A DNA stretch of 64,000 bases from NCBI GenBank assembly GCA_965222605.1, contig OZ244960.1, forward strand, positions 1,536,001-1,600,000, written 5' to 3'. The notes beneath the pieces were generated by a model. The model ran no database searches. It saw only the letters and a program-made list of their open reading frames with translations, and was not told where the DNA came from. Position 1 is the first letter of the stretch, and the number at the start of each line of letters is the position of its first letter. This document shows positions 41,498-50,635 of the stretch, piece by piece. Source of the DNA: Candidatus Latescibacterota bacterium (GTDB taxonomy: Bacteria; Latescibacterota; UBA2968). Position numbers and translations under genes: made by a program.

Positions 41498-41734
41498 TAA
41501 CCGCGAGTTTTTAAGTAGATTGATAAATCAATCGGATGGTATAGTGATTGCGATGCGTTCAACTCGAATCTCGTAGGACTAAAGGCATAATTTTGGTATA
41601 ATTATGCATATAAGCATTTGTTTTCTCATAGATTTTTTAATTTTTTATACACGTTAATAGCGTTTAAGATTTTGGAGAGGGTTATCCATTCTTTTACAAA
41701 CGTATGTATCCCCATACCTGAAAAAATAACGTGT

Positions 41735-44700
41735 ATGTTTAAAAACGGCACCATTCTCGACAAAAGATATCAAATCCAGGCGCACCTGGGAACCGGGGGC
41801 ATGGGCGAAGTTTATCGGGTTTTAGACCTGGATCAAGGCCAGGCGTGCGCGCTCAAAATTTTGAATACAATGGTGGATCAGAAGGCTGTGCATCGCCGTT
41901 TTCACAGAGAGTTTCAAGTGTTGAACCGATTCCAGCACCCGCGCCTGGTCCGCACATACACCTGGGGCTTTGCCGAAGATCGTCCCTATTTTACAATGGA
42001 ATATTTGCCCGGAAAGACATTGGAAAAAATAATTGCCGATCAAGCACGGTTAGGGCAATTCCGAGCGTCTCACTTTTTTGCTCTGGTACAACAACTTGCC
42101 GAGGGATTGGCTTATATCCACACGCAGGGGGCGGTGCATCGCGATCTCAAACCATCCAATATTATGGTTTTGGAAACAGAAGAGGGGATTGAGACCACGA
42201 TCCTGGATATGGGACTGGCGAAACTCAGGCATCTACATAGCGTTTCCATTACGCAAACGGGCGCGGCGATTGGTACCGCCGAGTATATGTCGCCAGAGCA
42301 AGGTAAGGGTCTCTGGGTGGATCATCGGTCAGATTTGTACTCATTGGGCATAATTTTATATGAGATGCTCACGGGCGCGCCGCCATTTTCTGGACAAAAC
42401 CCAATATCTGTTATTATGAAGCATATTCGAGAGTCACCCCCACCAATGGGTCAAGTCAATATCGCTGTTCCCGAACAGACGCAACAAATTGTGCTGAAGT
42501 TGCTGGCAAAAGAGCCTGTTGATCGTTATCAGTCGGCAGAGGAGGTGTTACATGCCTTACCATCGGAGGTTGTGTTGCCGGGTGATGAGCTGCGCGATGT
42601 GCGCAGGAAAGTTATGCGGCCACAATTTATCGGGCGCGAATCCGAAATGAAGACGTTGCGCGCAATGTTGCAGGATGTACAGGCTGGCAAACAGCGCGTA
42701 GTGCTGATCTCTGGTGAGGCAGGGGTGGGCAAATCGAGATTGGTCGAAGAACTATTGGGCGACGCTCTGATCCATGACTTTCTGTGTTTGAAAAGCGCAG
42801 CTCAGGAAGAGGGCAGACAAATATACGGTGCGTTGATTGATGCTTTTCAGCGAGTAAAAACGACGGATTTGGTGGGAAGGGAAACAGACAAGTTTTCTGT
42901 TATGGAGCGTTGGTTGCAGTTATTAAAAAGTCTGCGACAGAAACAGCCCATTGTGTTGTGTTTGGAAGATATTCAATGGCTTGATGAATTGACCCTGGAA
43001 TTTTTACAGTACGCGATCCAGAACCGTGCCCGTTTTTGTTATGCCTGACTTGCCGATGGTCTAACCTGGAACCCCTTTCAGAGGAAATTGAAAAATTTAT
43101 ATACAGTAATGAATTTGCCGAGACGACCCAGATGCAGTTGGGAAATCTGTCACAAGAAGCGTCGGGATATTTAGCGGCGTCGATGTTTGGGGAGCGAGCC
43201 ATACCGTTAGATGCATTGCAAACCCTGTTCAGAGAAACAGGTGGGCTACCCCTGTTTGTCGTGGAGGCTGTGAGGACACTGGTAAATGCCGATGTGGTTC
43301 GGCAGAATGCGTTCGGCGATTGGCAGTGGGGAGAATTTCCCGAAACTTTGTTGTCCGATGATTTTGCAGAGGTTTTGTACAGGCGCATAGTTGCCCTGCC
43401 TGCTGTGCAACAGCGGGTGCTGGAATACGCCTGTGTTTTTCTGAGTGATTTTCCTTTTGAATTATTGGCTGCTATCTGGCGCGGCGATGAGTTGGAACTG
43501 TTGGATGTACTGGATGAATTGATTGCAGAAGGGCTTTTGACAGCTTGTGGAGAGGATGAAGATCGATATCGATTTTCACAGGCGTTGTGTCGGCGTGCAA
43601 TTTACGATCACATGCAAAATGTGCGGCGACGTCTGCTGCATCGAGAAATTGGCAGTGCTTTGGAAAAGATGGAGGATGCAGAAGAACTGACGGAAGAATT
43701 GGCGGATCATTTTGCGGCGGCAAAAGAACAAGATAAAGCTGTGAAATATACACGCCTATCAGGCAAAAAAGCATTGGAGGTACAAGCCTATCGCCAGGCA
43801 TTGAGACGGTTTGAGGCTGTGCGAGACTGGGCAGCGGATGACGCTTTTGAATCACCTGCAGATGTAATTGACTTTTTGTGCGATTATGCAGATGCGTTGC
43901 GCAATTGCGGTCAGCACAATAGCGCACTGGAACTTTTAGATGAGGCACAGGCGTTATTGCCCGATGATCGGAACGATTTGAAGGCACGTATTTTGAGGAA
44001 TATAGGTGGTATTCATACCGTACTTCAACAGGGAAAAATTACAAAAAAATATATGTTGGAGGCATTGCGACTTTATCGAGAACTGGGTGATTTTGAGGGT
44101 GAAATTCAAACGTTGGGGAGTTTGGCTTATTTGTACGACATGTCTGGACGACACGAAGAAGCTATTGCATATATGCGTCGGGAAATAGAGAAACGTCGTG
44201 CGCTACGAGAACCACAAAACAGAGCTTTTATACAGGGGCGAGAAGGTCAAGCAGCATTGGTCGGATTTCGATTTGAGACAGCTAAGGGGTATTTGGAAAC
44301 TGCTGTAAAGGCCTTTAAGCAACCTGGTCTGGAGCACCATCGCATTTGGGCACTTAATTTTCTTCCAAGAGTTTATTTCTATCTAAATAATTTTAATCGT
44401 GCAGAAGCCATTTGCCACGAAGTCATTGGTGAGTGGCAGAAGCGAGGGGTTGTGTACTGGGAAGCAGTGAATCTTCTCTGGCTTGGGGAATTGGCTCTGG
44501 AACGCGGTGATTTTGCCGAGGCATTGGAATATGCCGAGACCTCAGCAGAGCGTTTTTTGGAAACACCGAGAAGAGATTATGTCTATCGCGCTTATGCAAT
44601 AGCGGCAACAGTTGCTGCGAGAATGGGAGATGCAGAAGTAGCACTTGAATGGGCAGAAAAAGCCAGTGAAGGTACGCAACAAACATCGGGTATGTACACG

Positions 44701-46533
44701 GGTATATTGCCCCTGGTGTATTGTGGTATTGGTGTTGCTTTTGCTCAAGCAGAGCGGATTTCTGAGGCTGAAGAGGCTTTTGAGCAGGCTATTGAATGCC
44801 GAAGAGAATCCAAAGGCGATCACTGGGCACGTGCGTTGCTGATGGCAGGGGAGTTTTATCTCGAGCGCGATGATATGACAAAAGCTCAAGAGTATCTCGA
44901 AGCGGCACAACAGGCTTTTGGAGAAATGGAAATGTCCTATTTTTTGGAGAAAACAGAGGTGCTATTAAATCAATTATCTCGCGACAAAGATGGTCACGGC
45001 AAGGATGCCGCTCCAACCCCCAGTTCTGAGATTTCAGTCGATACGTTGTCTGTTGATCGCTTGCGCTTGCTTTACGATGTGAGCAGGGAATTAACCACAG
45101 AGCGCGATGTCAAAGTGTTATTGGATCGAACTTTGGGTAATTTACTGGCTGTTTATCCCGCAGAGCGAGTACTTATTGCGGTGAAAAATGAGGCTCCAAA
45201 AGGCTTTGTGGTTGATGCGGTACGTTACCACAATGTAGAAGCTGATGATGCAGAAGCACTGAGTCGGAGTATTATTCGCCGCGTTATTGAAACAAATGAA
45301 CCGGTTTTGAGCGTTGATGCCCAGGCAGATGGAAGACTCAATCGGTATCAAAGCGTGATGGACTACAACATTCGGTCTGTATTGTGCGTACCCCTATTTC
45401 ATGTTAAGGAAGGTGTGATGGGTGCCCTATATGTGGATCATCGCGGTATCGGCAACGCATTTTCTGAAGCAGATCAGACGTTTTTACAAGCATTTGCGAA
45501 TCTGGTGGGGGTAGCACTGGTCAATGCGAGGATGTACGAACAATTAGAAGATAAAACGCGATATTTGCAGCAACAGATCGAAAGGCGGTACCAGCTTGAC
45601 GATCTGGTTGGGCAAAGTGATGCGATGCAGGCCATCTACTATCTTATCGAACGCGCTTCACAAAGTGATATACCCGTACTTGTGCAGGGCGAAACAGGTA
45701 CAGGCAAAGAATTGGCTGCGCGTGCCATACACTACAATAGCAGACGCAAAGACCAGCCATTTTTGTCGCAAAATTGCGCTGCACTTTCACCAGAGTTGTT
45801 GCAGAGTGAGTTGTTTGGGCACAAAAAAGGGGCGTTTACTGGCGCGACAGCAAATCACACTGGGATTTTTGAAGCGGCCAATGGCGGTACGGTTTTTTTA
45901 GATGAAATCGCTGATGCTTCACCACAGTTGCAAAGGAGTTTGTTGCGGGTGTTGCAAGAGGGTGAGGTGCGGCGCGTGGGAGAAACAGTGGATCGCGCAG
46001 TGGATGTGCGCATTATTGCAGCGACCAATCGAGACTTAAAAAAAGAAGTAGAAAACAGCTCCTTCCGCGAAGATCTGTATTACCGGTTGCATGTGATTCA
46101 GATCAATATGCCGCCTTTGCGAAAACGCATTGAAGATGTGCCATTATTGGCTGAACATTTGCTCATTCGGGCAAAAGAAGATGCAAACAAGTCGGTTGGG
46201 GGGCTGACAGTAGGTGCGATAAAGACCCTTGCAAGTTACAACTGGCCTGGTAATGTACGCGAGTTAGAAAATGAGATTCGGCGTGCGGTTGCATTGGTAG
46301 AAGAAGAGGGTGAAATTACGCCCGATTTGTTTTCAGAAACTGTCGGGTACACAGTGTCAGATGTCCCTGTCGAATCCCAGGAACGTTTACAAGACCGTGT
46401 CCAGGAGTATGAAAAACGAGTGATTCGAGACGCACTCGAGAAATGCGAGGGCAATATTACCCATACGGCTAAAGAACTGGGGATAACGCGTGCTGGTTTA
46501 CAGAAAAAGATCAATCGTTTGGGATTGAGATAG
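41735..46533 (+). pseudogene. Ser/Thr kinase-STAND ATPase-TPR-GAF-sigma54 AAA+-Fis HTH regulator, split by a frameshift near 43012
   Basis: GTGGMGEVY, HRDLKPSN, YMSPEQ; GEAGVGKS, LCLEDIQW; after the frame change ETGGLPLFV, TPRs, GAF (SVLCVPL), GETGTGKE, GAFTGA, WPGNVRELEN, HTH. Confidence 0.8.
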
Positions 46534-46544
46534 TCGGTGAACAG

Positions 46545-46664
46545 GTGCATCCAACTGTATGCAGTGCATCCTGTCGGATGCACTTTACCTATTCTTATAT
46601 AATTCAAATATTTATGTTGGTTTTCTTTAAATAAGCACTTATAGGTGCATCCTGTCGGATGCAC
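46545..46664. promoter_or_regulatory. palindromic upstream activating sequences (bEBP binding sites)
   Basis: GTGCATCC-tgtc-GGATGCAC identical at 46564-46583 and 46645-46664; degenerate GTGCATCC-aact-GTATGCAG at 46545-46564. Confidence 0.75.
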
Positions 46665-46773
46665 TTGCGCCAGAATCTCGCAGGTGTAGCACAAATAATC
46701 CTTAAATTTTATCTCTTTTATTTTCAATCACTTGAGAATCTTCAAGTGCTTTTTTTGTTCTGAGGACGGTTTC

Positions 46774-46789
46774 AGGCACGCCTTTTGCG
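46774..46789 (+). promoter_or_regulatory. sigma54 -24/-12 promoter
   Basis: aGGCACG-cctt-TTGCg with GG(46775-6)-N10-GC(46787-8), about 60 bp before the peptide ORF. Confidence 0.8.
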
Positions 46790-46846
46790 GTATGAAAAGG
46801 GCGAGACAGTGACAATATGGGATTTTCGCATCGTAAGGAGAGTAAT

Positions 46847-47026
46847 ATGGCAACGCGACGCAAGTTGGATCTGATCAATGGAACGATAGATACAGAAGGT
46901 GGTATTCTTATGTATCGGGCTACGAACAGTTTTGAGGTTGGCTGTATGCCTGGTGATATAGCCGTTCCCCCCCTGCCCTTTCCCAATGACGATGACGATT
47001 GGGACAATTTTGAGCAAGCTAAGTGA
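46847..47026 (+). CDS. putative RiPP precursor peptide (59 aa, single Cys)
   Basis: RBS AAGGAG at 46835; MATRRKLDLINGTIDTEGGILMYRATNSFEVGCMPGDIAVPPLPFPNDDDDWDNFEQAK; 24 bp upstream of the rSAM gene. Confidence 0.75.
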   Translation: MATRRKLDLINGTIDTEGGILMYRATNSFEVGCMPGDIAVPPLPFPNDDDDWDNFEQAK

Positions 47027-47050
47027 TTTCGATTCTCAGGAGTGCTTGAC

Positions 47051-48487
47051 ATGCTATGCATTCAGAAATGTGACATGCATCTTTTTCAAACAGAAGAGCA
47101 AAAACAGCCTGTTGTCTATCAGGTTGAGACGGGTCTGTTTTTTACACTGGATCCCCTTTTGCAGGCAATTTTAGCGTGTTGTGAGGGGATATCTGCTTCA
47201 CAGGTTGTTCAGATGTTGGCTGATCAATACGAGGCAGAAGAAATCGTGGAGGCTATCCAAGAATTGGCTCAGGTGGGTTTGATTTCGGATGGTGCTCTAC
47301 CTGTGGTATCCGATGTACCGACGACAGAAGGGGTGGCAGCCTGTGGGGTATCGCAGACAGATCGTTTGCAGGTGTCGTTGCACGTTTCGCATACGTGCAA
47401 TATCCAATGCGCTTATTGCTTTGCCCACGGCGGGGATTATGGCGGTAAGGCCATGCTGATGCAATCAGACGTTGCCGAGCAAGCCATACGATGGATTGTC
47501 ACCGAGGCTCAGACATTGGGGCGGTGCCAGATTGATTTTTTTGGCGGGGAGCCGCTTTTGAATTTTCCACTGATGCGCAAGCTTGTCCCATTTGCCAAAT
47601 CCCAGGCAGCGCGATTGGGTGTGCAGGTTGGTTTTGGCATTGTGACCAATGGCACGTTGTTGACTGACGAGATGAAGCAGTTTTTAGTTGATGAAAAGTT
47701 TCAGATTAAGGTCAGCCTGGATGGTGGGCGTGCAACACAGAACCGCATTCGCAAGTTTCACAATGATTCAGGTACTTATGATGTTGTGGCAACGAATGTA
47801 AAAAAGCTGACTGCTGAGGTACCTGAGCGCGTGTATTTGCAGGCTGTTATGACAGCGTATGATATGGATGAGGATCAGATTGCCGATGCGTTGCGTTCTC
47901 TGGGTACTGAAAACGCGCTGGTTGGCCCGGCGGTTGTCTCCCCCGATAAACCTTATGCTATTCGAGAAGAACACATACCCGCATTGAAGCAACAAATTCA
48001 CAAGCGGAGCCGGCGTGCGCTCAAAGCCATTTTAAGTGGTGAAAAGGGTGAAGATGAAGAGTTTGATCCGAGGATTCAAAAACTTTTGACACGCAAAAAA
48101 TCTTGTCACGGGTGTCTCGGTGGCAAGCAGTATTTGGCTGTTGCAGCAGATGGGTCAATTTATTTTTGCTCGAGTTTGGCCGATGCGCCCGAGTTTAAGA
48201 TGGGTGATGTGTTTGCGGGTATTGACCGCGAAAAACAGCATTATTTTGACGCGCAGTTCAATGTGAATAATCGTCCTGAGTGCAAAACGTGCTGGGCGCG
48301 CAACTTATGTGGTGGCGGATGTCTTTGGGAGGCGCGGACGACGACGGATGATCCGATGTCTCCCAACCCGGTTTATTGTGAGCAGACGCGCTATCGTTAT
48401 GAACTGGCAATGGAAATGTGTATGGAAATTGCAGAAGCAGATGCGTCTTTGTTGCAGCGACGTTATGATCTGGAAGTGGTATCATAA
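47051..48487 (+). CDS. radical SAM/SPASM peptide maturase with N-terminal RRE-like domain (CteB/QhpD-like)
   Basis: CNIQCAYC, FFGGEPLL, VTNGTLL, VSLDG; SPASM GCLGGKQYLAVAADGSIYFC...CKTCWARNLCGGGC...YC; about 80-aa N-terminal extension. Confidence 0.9.
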   Translation: MLCIQKCDMHLFQTEEQKQPVVYQVETGLFFTLDPLLQAILACCEGISASQVVQMLADQYEAEEIVEAIQELAQVGLISDGALPVVSDVPTTEGVAACGVSQTDRLQVSLHVSHTCNIQCAYCFAHGGDYGGKAMLMQSDVAEQAIRWIVTEAQTLGRCQIDFFGGEPLLNFPLMRKLVPFAKSQAARLGVQVGFGIVTNGTLLTDEMKQFLVDEKFQIKVSLDGGRATQNRIRKFHNDSGTYDVVATNVKKLTAEVPERVYLQAVMTAYDMDEDQIADALRSLGTENALVGPAVVSPDKPYAIREEHIPALKQQIHKRSRRALKAILSGEKGEDEEFDPRIQKLLTRKKSCHGCLGGKQYLAVAADGSIYFCSSLADAPEFKMGDVFAGIDREKQHYFDAQFNVNNRPECKTCWARNLCGGGCLWEARTTTDDPMSPNPVYCEQTRYRYELAMEMCMEIAEADASLLQRRYDLEVVS

Positions 48488-48548
48488 GCAGAGAAGTGAG
48501 GAATGCATAAAATTTTAGACTTCAATTGCATGGAAAGGAGCAATTGCA

Positions 48549-49466
48549 ATGAAAGCGATCTTGTATGTGGCTATGGTGCTGTTTCTTACAGCCAGTTCTG
48601 GCATGGCAGAGCGAAAGACGCTCGACAAAATACATCGTCAAATACCCGTTGGCGCGTCAGAAGTGCTTGTGCCGAACCCAAAACGACAAGATGGTTACGA
48701 TCAGATTATAAAAAATCATGAGTTAAAATACGATAAGAAGACAGGGCTTTATACCTATCGATATTGGCAGACAGATAGCACGTATGTCGATTTGCTTTAT
48801 GAACCCTCCAACCGGCTTGATGTGACGGTTGCATGCTCTGTGGTCTATGATGGAGAAACGGACGAATACACCTATACTTATCACATCCTAAATAGCAAGG
48901 AGAGCTTACAACCTTTGTGGATATTTGCTTTAGATATAGACCGCAGCCTGGTACTTCGTACTGAAACACCTGAACCATGGTATTATTCTTCTACTCATGA
49001 GCCTCCGCCCGGCTCACCTCGATGGGCATTTTGGGGATCGTTAGGCAGGTATGTGCCCCCAGGCGAATCTATTTCCTTGAAGCTTGTGAGCAAACACGGT
49101 CCGATCATCGCTACCTGTTACTCCAAAGGTCGTGCTCGAACTTTTGATCATCCTGTTGTTGTCGATGCTTTGACTTCTCATCCACCAAATAAAGAGGGTG
49201 TTACAGGTCAGACGCTCGCGCCTGGTATTCTGAATGCTGAAAATGCACAAGCACAGATTGAGGCATTTCTCCAGACTGCTCAGACCTGGGGGTGGGTCAG
49301 CACAGAGAAGAAAGGTGCGGCACTTGTTCACCTTTCCAAGGGATTGGATAGAAATACCTTCAACGCCTTAAAAAACGAACTGAATCCCAATCCTGGTGAG
49401 GTTGAAAGTGAGATGGCTGCGTTCTTAGAGCACTTTGCCAATAAGCAGGGATTTGTGGATGATTAG
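48549..49466 (+). CDS. secreted hypothetical protein
   Basis: RBS aaaggag; signal peptide MKAILYVAMVLFLTASSGMA; Tyr/Thr-rich beta strands. Confidence 0.8.
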   Translation: MKAILYVAMVLFLTASSGMAERKTLDKIHRQIPVGASEVLVPNPKRQDGYDQIIKNHELKYDKKTGLYTYRYWQTDSTYVDLLYEPSNRLDVTVACSVVYDGETDEYTYTYHILNSKESLQPLWIFALDIDRSLVLRTETPEPWYYSSTHEPPPGSPRWAFWGSLGRYVPPGESISLKLVSKHGPIIATCYSKGRARTFDHPVVVDALTSHPPNKEGVTGQTLAPGILNAENAQAQIEAFLQTAQTWGWVSTEKKGAALVHLSKGLDRNTFNALKNELNPNPGEVESEMAAFLEHFANKQGFVDD

Positions 49467-49487: not shown

Positions 49488-50635
49488 ATGCCCCCTCTCG
49501 CAGCAAAATCAAGCCAGCACAGAAAGGCACTGAAGAACGCTATTATCGAATATTTGCTTAAAAACGGCATCCAAATGGAGAGCACCCCGTTAGATGCCGT
49601 TTATTTTACTTTTCTGGTGTGGGATTCTCGACAGATTGTTGGTGATGGGAGGAATATATCACTCAAAAATCCGGCCTCGATAAATGGCCGCTCATTGGAC
49701 AGCACCCCTCACTCTTAGACGTACAAAAGCGCGCGTACCGCGTGGCGAATAGCGAATTGCCCGTCAACATCAGTGGAGAGACTGGCACAGGCAAGGAATT
49801 GCTCGCCCGTTATATTCACGGAATTAGCCACCGCAACAAGGGACCTTTTGTAACCGTTGACTGCGGCCTACTCTCTTCTGAAATGGCGCGCAGCGAGTTA
49901 TTTGGACATGTTCGAGGTGCTTTTACCGGCGCCAGTCAAACGCGCACCGGACTGGTTGAATCTGCCCAAGGCGGTACGCTATTCCTCGATGAAGTGGGCG
50001 AATTGCCTGCCAACCTCCAGTTGCAATTGCTTCGCCTGGCACAGGAACAGGAATTTCGCCGCGTAGGCGACGCACCCATGCGCCGATCCAACGTGCGCCT
50101 GATCACTGCGACACACTGCAATTTGAAAAAAATGATGCGAACAGGAACTTTCCGAGAAGATCTCTATTACCGCTTAAATGTCGTACCCCTGCATTTGCCA
50201 CCCCTGCGGAAGCGACTGAGCGATTTGCCACTTTTGGTCACGCATTTTTGCAAAAGTATGAAAGGATACACGCGCGCGTTTTCCCCCGAAGTAATTCAAA
50301 GGATGTCGCATTATGCCTGGCCTGGCAATGTTCGAGAATTACAACACGAAGTCGCCCGATTGATGGTCATGAGCGAAGGTAAAATTATCCGTGTATCCGA
50401 TCTGAGCCCTCGCATTCGAGGGTCCAAAGCAGAGGTTGATGTATTTGACCTCCCGTTTAAGGAAGCCAGACAACTGGCGAATAGCCGGTTTATGCGGGAG
50501 TATCTCCACAGAGCTTTACAGCGAACACAGGGCAATGTATCACAAGCAGCGCGAGAATGCGGGATTGGCCGACAATATTTCCAGTTGCGTATGTCCGAAC
50601 ACGGTCTAAGGTCGGCATTTTACAAGGAAAAATAA
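49488..50635 (+). pseudogene. sigma54-dependent activator (AAA+ plus Fis HTH), apparently frameshifted near 49646
   Basis: GETGTGKE, SELFGHVRGAFTGA, WPGNVREL; the frame extends upstream as WEEYITQKSGLDKWPLIGQHPSLLDV to a TGA at 49643 and overlaps ORF 49488 in another frame. Confidence 0.7.

Follow-up and report, generated by a model that had tools for sequence, protein, structure and literature searches.

A single-cysteine precursor family paired with a CteB-like radical SAM/SPASM enzyme in a predicted sigma-54-dependent cassette of Latescibacterota

What becomes of a 59-residue peptide that carries one cysteine and is encoded directly upstream of a radical S-adenosylmethionine (SAM) enzyme? 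The question is raised by a locus in a 64,000-nucleotide stretch of the genome of a Candidatus Latescibacterota bacterium (GenBank assembly GCA_965222605.1, contig OZ244960.1, positions 1,536,001 to 1,600,000; hereafter the window, with positions counted from its first letter), in which a first-pass annotation had proposed a new class of RiPP (peptide synthesized on the ribosome and modified post-translationally). As judged from sequence comparison, the precursor and an enzyme that joins a RiPP precursor recognition element (RRE) to radical SAM and SPASM domains are a genuine RiPP-type pair. The unit to which they belong is a cassette of approximately 7 kb that comprises an activator, the precursor and the maturase, and its precursor family is undescribed. 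We give a little better than an even chance to the proposal that the enzyme joins the single cysteine (Cys33) of the leader-bound precursor into one thioether macrocycle, within a sigma-54-switched cassette. What stands of the original claim is a new family; the enzyme falls below all family cut-offs and forms its own clade. The word class says too much for as long as the chemistry is not established.

The precursor and maturase genes

46847..47026, plus strand: precursor peptide open reading frame (ORF), 59 amino acids, one cysteine (C33)
Layout of this precursor: leader with the motif KL-x-L-I-N-G, invariant Cys33, six-residue loop (here MPGDIA), VPPLPFP segment, acidic tail
47042..48487, plus strand: RRE-radical SAM/SPASM maturase, 481 amino acids from GTG 47042 or 478 amino acids from ATG 47051

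All features described in the first-pass annotation, that is, a 59-residue ORF with its own ribosome-binding site lying between a sigma-54 promoter and the gene of the RRE-bearing radical SAM/SPASM enzyme, are present. The ribosome-binding site, AAGGAG, lies 6 nt 5′ of the precursor ATG, and the cysteine stands in NSFEVGCMPGD, followed by PPLPFP and the tail NDDDDWDNFE. For the maturase, ATG 47051, nine nt after an AGGAG, appears a more likely start than GTG 47042. A conserved small ORF upstream of orthologous enzymes, on which the original proposal depended, is indeed found: a precursor homologue lies directly upstream of the maturase in 33 of 33 close loci (87–93% maturase identity, the second copy of this genome included).

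A maturase related to CteB and outside the curated families

The maturase belongs, on its domain matches and cluster motifs, to the radical SAM/SPASM superfamily. The Pfam model Radical_SAM matches it with 50.6 bits (gathering score 29.5), and the models SPASM (18.2 bits versus 21.5) and PqqD (22.3 bits versus a gathering score of 23.4) each fall slightly short of their thresholds. The CX3CX2C cluster motif (C119, C123 and C126) and seven SPASM cysteines (C358, C376, C414, C417, C423, C427 and C446) do not vary across 33 family members, and all seven of the latter pair one-to-one with those of CteB in the alignment. In the AlphaFold2 model (mean predicted local distance difference test score (pLDDT) 87.8), the N-terminal 83 residues form strands 6–9, 12–15, 24–27 and 33–35 and helices 38–46, 52–59 and 65–77, with block pLDDT values of 74–95 across residues 1–80; this domain aligns with the N-terminus of CteB and is predicted to adopt the RRE (PqqD-like) fold, as had been guessed from the size of the extension.

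The top solved relative is CteB (5WGG), both by family profile (314.7 bits over residues 9–456) and by fold (Foldseek E 7.8e-32, TM 0.70/0.76, identity 28%), which bears out the suggested pairing of the peptide with a thioether-type maturase; the Foldseek runner-up is the anaerobic sulfatase-maturing enzyme (anSME; E 5e-21). The top NCBIfam models are all of Cys-thioether maturases, with the QhpD model TIGR03906 nominally first (264.9 bits versus a cut-off of 453), followed by the SCIFF maturase model TIGR03974 (264.5 versus 425), the nif11 radical SAM model TIGR04064 (261.9 versus 518.7) and the PapB model NF047865 (225.2 versus 340). By these scores, the maturase sits outside the SCIFF, QhpD, PapB and nif11 families.

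A phylogeny against these families, another step that the first-pass annotation had put forward, likewise places the enzyme apart. The tree is a quick, unrooted IQ-TREE analysis of 62 rows (the window, 19 family members, 10 SCIFF, 8 QhpD, 8 nif11-like, 6 unassigned, 5 presumed PapB-like and 5 second radical SAM enzymes), in which ‘quick’ support is less safe than ‘careful’ support and several long rows are flagged. The 59 outgroup matches were labelled by NCBIfam, five Paenibacillus/Lysinibacillus loci among them being only presumed PapB-like. The window and its family form a starred clade (99), and SCIFF, QhpD and nif11-like enzymes each form a clade of their own at 100, with each of the eight QhpD rows scoring at least 557 bits on the QhpD model. 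The sister of the family clade (99) consists of a second radical SAM enzyme whose gene follows that of the maturase in distant loci, and this sister relationship suggests an old tandem duplication of the radical SAM gene, the second copy of which was lost from the clade of the window. The second radical SAM/SPASM genes (L034 8361–9665, L038 8860–10167, L039 6159–7538, L041 1189–2502 and L043 7596–8954) encode proteins that are 25–31% identical to the first.

A conserved cysteine beside a hypervariable loop

Twelve precursor residues are invariant among the 33 aligned copies: M1, K6, L7, L9, N11, G12, C33, V40, P41, F45, P46 and D49. Selection is distributed unevenly along the close precursors. 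The ratio of non-synonymous to synonymous substitution (dN/dS) and the pairwise diversity are 0.35 and 0.35 in the leader, 0.12 and 0.13 in the VPPLPFP segment and 0.13 and 0.24 in the acidic tail, and reach 0.95 and 0.71 in the six-residue loop after the cysteine; on these estimates, the leader, the VPPLPFP segment and the tail are under purifying selection and the loop is hypervariable. The 33 copies contain 29 distinct loops, MPGDIA and EPGWPS being those of the two cassettes of this genome, and the residue at Cys+4 is W in 11, S in 6, D, T and P in 3 each, A, V and R in 2 each and G in 1, so the ring from Cys to the Asp at +4 that had been proposed for the window peptide could form in only three of them. 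The maturase is intact in all 33 close copies with a mean pairwise diversity of 0.093, and its catalytic core and SPASM domain vary by only 0.01–0.06 (versus 0.71 in the precursor loop).

The pairing extends beyond the close copies. A short upstream ORF also accompanies the enzyme at the loci of approximately 50% identity (n = 6), where it contains C-x-W-P-x-F-P-x-L-P-P-P, and at those of approximately 43% identity (n = 7), where it contains L-S-C. All 13 of these distant precursors have one conserved cysteine and an Asn-containing leader motif (N-G or N-R), and across all 46 precursors read, the cysteine is the sole invariant residue of the core. The precursor matches no Pfam or NCBIfam model, and a profile of the close precursors found only 14 proteins at E ≤ 0.001 among 1.84 billion representatives. 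Six of those 14 (P0126, P0128, P0129, P0132, P0133 and P0134) show the conserved leader followed by unrelated sequence, as after a frameshift; in P0133 the reading frame comes back to the conserved tail.

Predicted docking of the leader on the RRE

A model of the complex, for which the inputs were the alignments of enzyme and precursor, three 4Fe-4S clusters and SAM, gave a score of 0.72 (three runs, 0.70–0.74) compared with 0.00 for the best control. Of solved complexes, 58 of 80 attained this mark, as did 2 of 110 mismatched pairs; because the complex of CteB with its leader had already been solved, this score is a sign of likeness and not independent proof. The runs have at least 42% of contacts in common, with a partner pLDDT of 47–52. 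In the model, peptide residues 4–14 pair with enzyme residues 31–37 and contact residues 71–78, that is, the predicted strand and helix of the RRE, and confident peptide contacts are confined to residues 4–14 and 18–26.

A sigma-54 promoter and its dedicated activator

41618..46533, plus strand: activator gene, encoding Ser/Thr kinase, AAA_16 (STAND) NTPase, TPR/MalT-like, GAF, sigma-54 AAA+ and Fis-type helix-turn-helix (HTH) domains
46545–46564, plus strand: palindrome 1, GTGCATCC-N4-GTATGCAG, putative activator site
46564–46583 and 46645–46664, plus strand: palindromes 2 and 3, GTGCATCC-TGTC-GGATGCAC, putative activator sites
46729..46756, plus strand: terminator-like hairpin, 8 pairs at 46729–46748, then a T-run
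46775–46788, plus strand: sigma-54 promoter core, GGCACGCCTTTTGC, GGCACG-N4-TTGC (−24 GG / −12 GC)

The operon of precursor and maturase is predicted to be sigma-54-dependent. The promoter core lies 58 nt before the precursor ATG; the window holds two matches to the sigma-54 pattern compared with 0.23 expected from shuffles (1 of 100 shuffles attained two), and no sigma-70-like site was found on the plus strand upstream of the precursor ORF. A sigma-54 motif 43–65 nt before the ATG, together with GGAG, recurs in 33 of 33 close loci, and the genome encodes rpoN (424 bits versus a cut-off of 277). The 33 aligned upstream regions have a common order of three palindromes, an A/T-rich stretch, hairpin, sigma-54 core and ribosome-binding site, in which the hairpin between the activator sites and the promoter probably stops the activator transcript.

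The activator gene, the true start of which is probably ATG 41735, is a constant companion of the pair. In 24 close loci it is a single ORF of 1600–1690 codons (counted as such at 1400 amino acids or more), and a tblastn comparison of the window proteins against 45 loci placed the kinase/AAA_16 and TPR-GAF-sigma-54-HTH pieces before the precursor at all loci whose flank was long enough, the 50% clade included; three of the loci of approximately 43% identity likewise have a sigma-54 activator. Its diversity is highest in the TPR region and the HTH. The recognition helix of the latter appears to covary with the half-sites of the palindromes: TRAGLQKK pairs with GTGCATCC in 13 of 13 cases, TRVGL[HY]KK with GTGTA[TA] in 10 of 10 and ARISLYRK with GTATCA in 3 of 3, a pattern that, because the loci are kin, describes covariation along a family and is not a statistical test. 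The filter used found no palindrome in three VRASLYRK loci, L011 and L035. The two cassettes of this genome have different recognition helices and different half-sites.

Is the window copy still switched on?

The activator of the window is split into overlapping ORFs (41618–43048 and 43036–46533) by the loss, between 43011 and 43012, of 7 bp that all five other copies in the alignment have. Because of this frameshift the copy may be silent, and the possibility that the window holds a decaying cassette, with peptide and enzyme genes that are intact and no longer switched on, is a serious one that we nevertheless hold to be somewhat doubtful. Disruption of the activator is not peculiar to the window, as it affects 6 of 30 assessable copies (the window, L004, L015, L021, L025 and L027), through a 1-nt loss in a T-run in L025, internal losses in L004 and L015 and frameshifts in L021 and L027. 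Rescue by the second cassette is unlikely because its recognition helix and half-site differ; in addition, a methyltransferase-like gene downstream has been cut down to eight codons (see below), and several public representative precursors look frameshifted. Against such decay, the precursor and the maturase of the window are intact and keep every invariant residue, and TPR-GAF-AAA+-HTH remains encoded by the ORF from TTG 43036, whose product might serve as a functional activator without a sensor. The deletion itself may be an assembly error: a contig from a DNA run is identical to 46671–47144, and at the deletion site the only DNA-run contig is that of the second copy of the genome, so that the deletion is not confirmed by reads.

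Contigs from RNA libraries (X12, X19 and X20; three studies) cover only parts of the maturase and none covers the precursor. At approximately 90–95% identity they come from relatives, and such libraries can also hold DNA; they show neither transcription nor silence of this copy. One of them (run X19, record 17; 1102 nt) joins the equivalent of window positions 45922–46045 straight to that of 47226–48189 and so omits 1180 nt, in which the activator ends and the promoter region, the precursor and the opening 180 nt of the maturase lie. A relative may carry this deletion, or the contig may be a chimera of assembly.

Distribution of the cassette

Approximately 60 relatives of the maturase were found at 39% identity or more, nearly all of them in metagenome-assembled genomes of Latescibacterota or Gemmatimonadota, and below this group identity falls to approximately 33%, where SCIFF-type and other maturases begin. 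A scan of one genome per species gave 44 family loci, to which a metagenome scan added only 6. This genome has two cassettes and zero orphan precursors. With carriers defined by an enzyme match at E ≤ 1e-100, 14 of 20 other genomes of the same genus have the enzyme, with 2–3 matches each (some fragmentary), and the other 6 have none; it was found in 0 of 4 genomes from other genera of the same family, and in 3 of 16 genomes of a second family of the same order, at approximately 50% identity. The cassette is patchy in its distribution, multi-copy and accessory. The bacteria belong to an uncultivated lineage, for which the labels of samples indicate sponges and corals. A full-text literature search found the cassette undescribed, its coverage ending short of the supplementary precursor lists of PMC10288494, which might include it.

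Proposed chemistry and the case for other readings

We suggest the following course of events. The kinase-STAND-TPR-GAF activator would bind the three upstream palindromes and open the sigma-54 promoter, from which a transcript encoding the 59-residue precursor and the radical SAM/SPASM enzyme would arise. The RRE would then grip the leader (K6-L7-x-L9-I-N11-G12) as an added β-strand, and the catalytic domain, with CteB-like auxiliary iron–sulfur clusters and a SAM-derived radical, would link the sulfur of Cys33 to a downstream carbon, to give a product with one closed thioether macrocycle. Homology of the enzyme to ranthisynthases suggests kinship of such a product to the ranthipeptides.

Because the loop varies freely and the enzyme barely, the acceptor would be expected either in the conserved part of the peptide or at a loop carbon whose use is independent of the side chain. 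Our preferred candidate is an Asp in the acidic stretch immediately past VPPLPFP, approximately +14 to +17 from the cysteine. In the close clade the Pro-rich segment is followed by Asp, and all six precursors of the 50% clade have a Thr at +12 to +14; acceptors given in the literature are Asp for PapB and QhpD (PMC13692751) and Thr for CteB (PMC9389541). The alternative, a side-chain-independent carbon within the loop, would have a precedent in NxxcB, the acceptor position of which tolerates several side chains according to a section of PMC9389541.

Several observations weigh against this proposal. The thioether is inferred from relatives at 28–33% identity, and the maturase lies under every curated family cut-off. 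A ring from the cysteine to the tail would span approximately 15–18 residues, larger than the rings of the CteB, PapB and QhpD substrates; Asp, Glu, Thr and Asn are all without conservation inside the loop, and in 8 of 33 precursors there is a further cysteine that is not conserved. In the complex model the core peptide is unplaced relative to the active site, and the docking score may itself reflect likeness to the solved CteB–leader complex 5WGG. The frameshifted activator of the window and the absence of the precursor from the RNA-library contigs count on the same side. Finally, no conserved peptidase or exporter was found among the recurrent downstream ORFs of 28 loci, which leaves the release of a mature product unexplained.

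The enzyme might perform radical chemistry of another kind, that is, form a C–C or C–O cross-link between aromatic and Pro-rich residues past the cysteine, epimerise a residue or oxidise the Cys side chain, in which case the conserved cysteine would be a cluster ligand or recognition element and not part of a bridge. We consider this unlikely, if worth keeping in view. Anaerobic sulfatase-maturing enzymes oxidise a Cys side chain, and anSME is the second-best structural relative of the maturase; the nearest characterised clades (SCIFF/CteB, QhpD and the presumed PapB-like enzymes of Paenibacillus), however, all take Cys as the sulfur donor. Aromatic residues are common just past the cysteine (W occupies +4 in a third of the close copies, and every one of the six 50%-clade precursors has C-x-W-P-x-F-P), yet their positions are never invariant, the window loop MPGDIA has none, and the cysteine is the only core residue kept in all 46 precursors. 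W52 is replaced by Arg in 5 of 33 precursors, which also tells against the aromatic cyclophane at WDN that had been offered as an alternative to the thioether. In favour of other chemistry, SPASM enzymes of related clades form C–C and C–O links, as described in parts of PMC9389541, and the enzyme scores under the cut-off of every thioether family.

A more speculative extension of the thioether proposal, to which we assign a low probability, is that each cassette is a private circuit for signalling or recognition, in which the cross-linked peptide, its hypervariable loop held out on a Pro-rich macrocycle, is the ligand of the variable TPR/STAND sensor of its own kinase-sigma-54 activator. If this were true, the 2–3 cassettes of a genome would be insulated both at the DNA level (helix and palindrome) and at the ligand level, and these uncultivated Latescibacterota, of which some come from samples associated with sponges, would possess a set of orthogonal autoinduction loops based on RiPPs.

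It is very improbable, and already mostly refuted, that the peptide is a QhpC-like subunit or cofactor precursor whose QhpD-type maturase serves a redox enzyme: although QhpD is nominally the top NCBIfam model and the tail has both Asp and Trp, in which the first-pass annotation saw a likeness to QhpC, the score is far below the cut-off and the genome contains no match over it, true QhpD enzymes form a separate clade, no dehydrogenase gene was seen among the neighbours (the models for qhpA and qhpB formed no part of the search), the Trp varies between copies, and a hypervariable loop and 2–3 diverged copies per genome are unexpected for a cofactor precursor.

Downstream genes

48503..48526, plus strand: remnant of a methyltransferase-like gene, ribosome-binding site and first eight codons (MHKILDFN)
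48549–49466: secreted protein of 305 amino acids with a signal-peptide-like start, in the place of the methyltransferase-like gene
49742–50635: short, sensor-less sigma-54 enhancer-binding protein, 297 amino acids
50675–53992: PHP-UvrD-like fusion, 1105 amino acids

In 13 of the 28 cassettes that were compared, the second copy of this genome included, the maturase is followed by a gene for a methyltransferase-like protein of approximately 300 amino acids (examples are L083 11715–12608 and L001 7587–8495). The assignment is weak, consisting of a class-I motif, Atlas clusters labelled Methyltransf_24 at 0.90 and a match to the O-methyltransferase 2gpy in the Protein Data Bank at E 0.0033, with no Pfam match; the protein may be a tailoring enzyme that was lost from the window copy. 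The 305-residue secreted protein now in its place belongs to no Pfam, NCBIfam or PADLOC family, and we rejected it as a part of the cassette: it is absent from the other cassettes and unrelated to the methyltransferase-like gene, its sole other match (83% over 146 residues) lying at the remote end of L002. The genes of the enhancer-binding protein and the PHP-UvrD fusion flank the cassette at 88–95% identity in 12 loci and mark one of 2–3 chromosomal cassette sites. A reading of the locus as a defence system is unsupported, with PADLOC giving generic matches only (kinase PD-T4-6, AAA+ RtcR-like and radical SAM core pVip).

Comparison with known systems

The closest likeness is to CteB and its substrate CteA (thermocellin; 5WGG/5WHY), with which the system shares an RRE, a radical SAM core and a seven-cysteine SPASM domain aligned over nearly the whole enzyme, a precursor gene immediately upstream and a leader modelled on the RRE strand. 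In contrast to CteB and the SCIFF maturases (TIGR03974), the enzyme has only 28% identity, scores below the family cut-off and forms a separate clade, the precursor has one conserved cysteine instead of six together with a hypervariable loop, a Pro-rich segment and an acidic tail, and the cassette comes with its own sigma-54 activator and is multi-copy within a genome. QhpD (TIGR03906), which uses an RRE and forms Cys–Asp and Cys–Glu thioethers (PMC13692751), is likewise a homologous RRE-radical SAM/SPASM enzyme, and the precursor tail described here is, for its part, rich in Asp; the two differ in that the substrate of the present enzyme is a 59-residue peptide with one cysteine, in that adjacent dehydrogenase genes were not seen and in clade.

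With PapB and freyrasin (NF047865), for which Asp is given as the acceptor in a portion of PMC9413430, the system shares the ranthipeptide maturase superfamily. It differs in its score (225.2 versus 340 bits), in an N-terminal 110 residues without a match in the PapB model and in a precursor without repeated Cys-x3-Asp units. From the nif11-like system (TIGR04064) it is set apart by its score (261.9 versus 518.7 bits) and by a precursor that matches no NCBIfam or Pfam model. The statement in the first-pass annotation that known substrates carry several cysteines was too strong, given that single-cysteine thioether peptides are reported, namely KgrA (PMC10288494) and the NxxC family (PMC9389541). 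These single-Cys radical-SAM thioether RiPPs, including the NxxcB system, are like the present one and would permit an acceptor in the variable loop; they are made by streptococcal and enterococcal RaS enzymes that presumably belong to other clades, and their precursors and regulation are unrelated.

The activator, for its part, resembles LAL/MalT- and PknK-type STAND proteins in its AAA_16 and TPR sensor and NifA-type proteins in its GAF, sigma-54 AAA+ and Fis-HTH output, the likeness to LAL and PknK being a matter of general background. Unlike those regulators, it fuses both modules behind a Ser/Thr kinase in approximately 1600 amino acids and is tied to a two-gene peptide operon.

In summary, the thioether-forming radical SAM maturases gain a precursor family that is undescribed and a separate clade of enzymes. 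Because the loop varies almost freely while the enzyme stays approximately 90% identical, the system suggests a loop-tolerant macrocyclase, which would serve peptide display or engineering, and because the cassette is essentially two genes and a promoter, its chemistry is open to a direct test by co-expression. Compared with other members of the enzyme superfamily, the combination of a single conserved cysteine, a free six-residue loop and a dedicated activator of approximately 1600 amino acids with co-diverging DNA sites is unusual.

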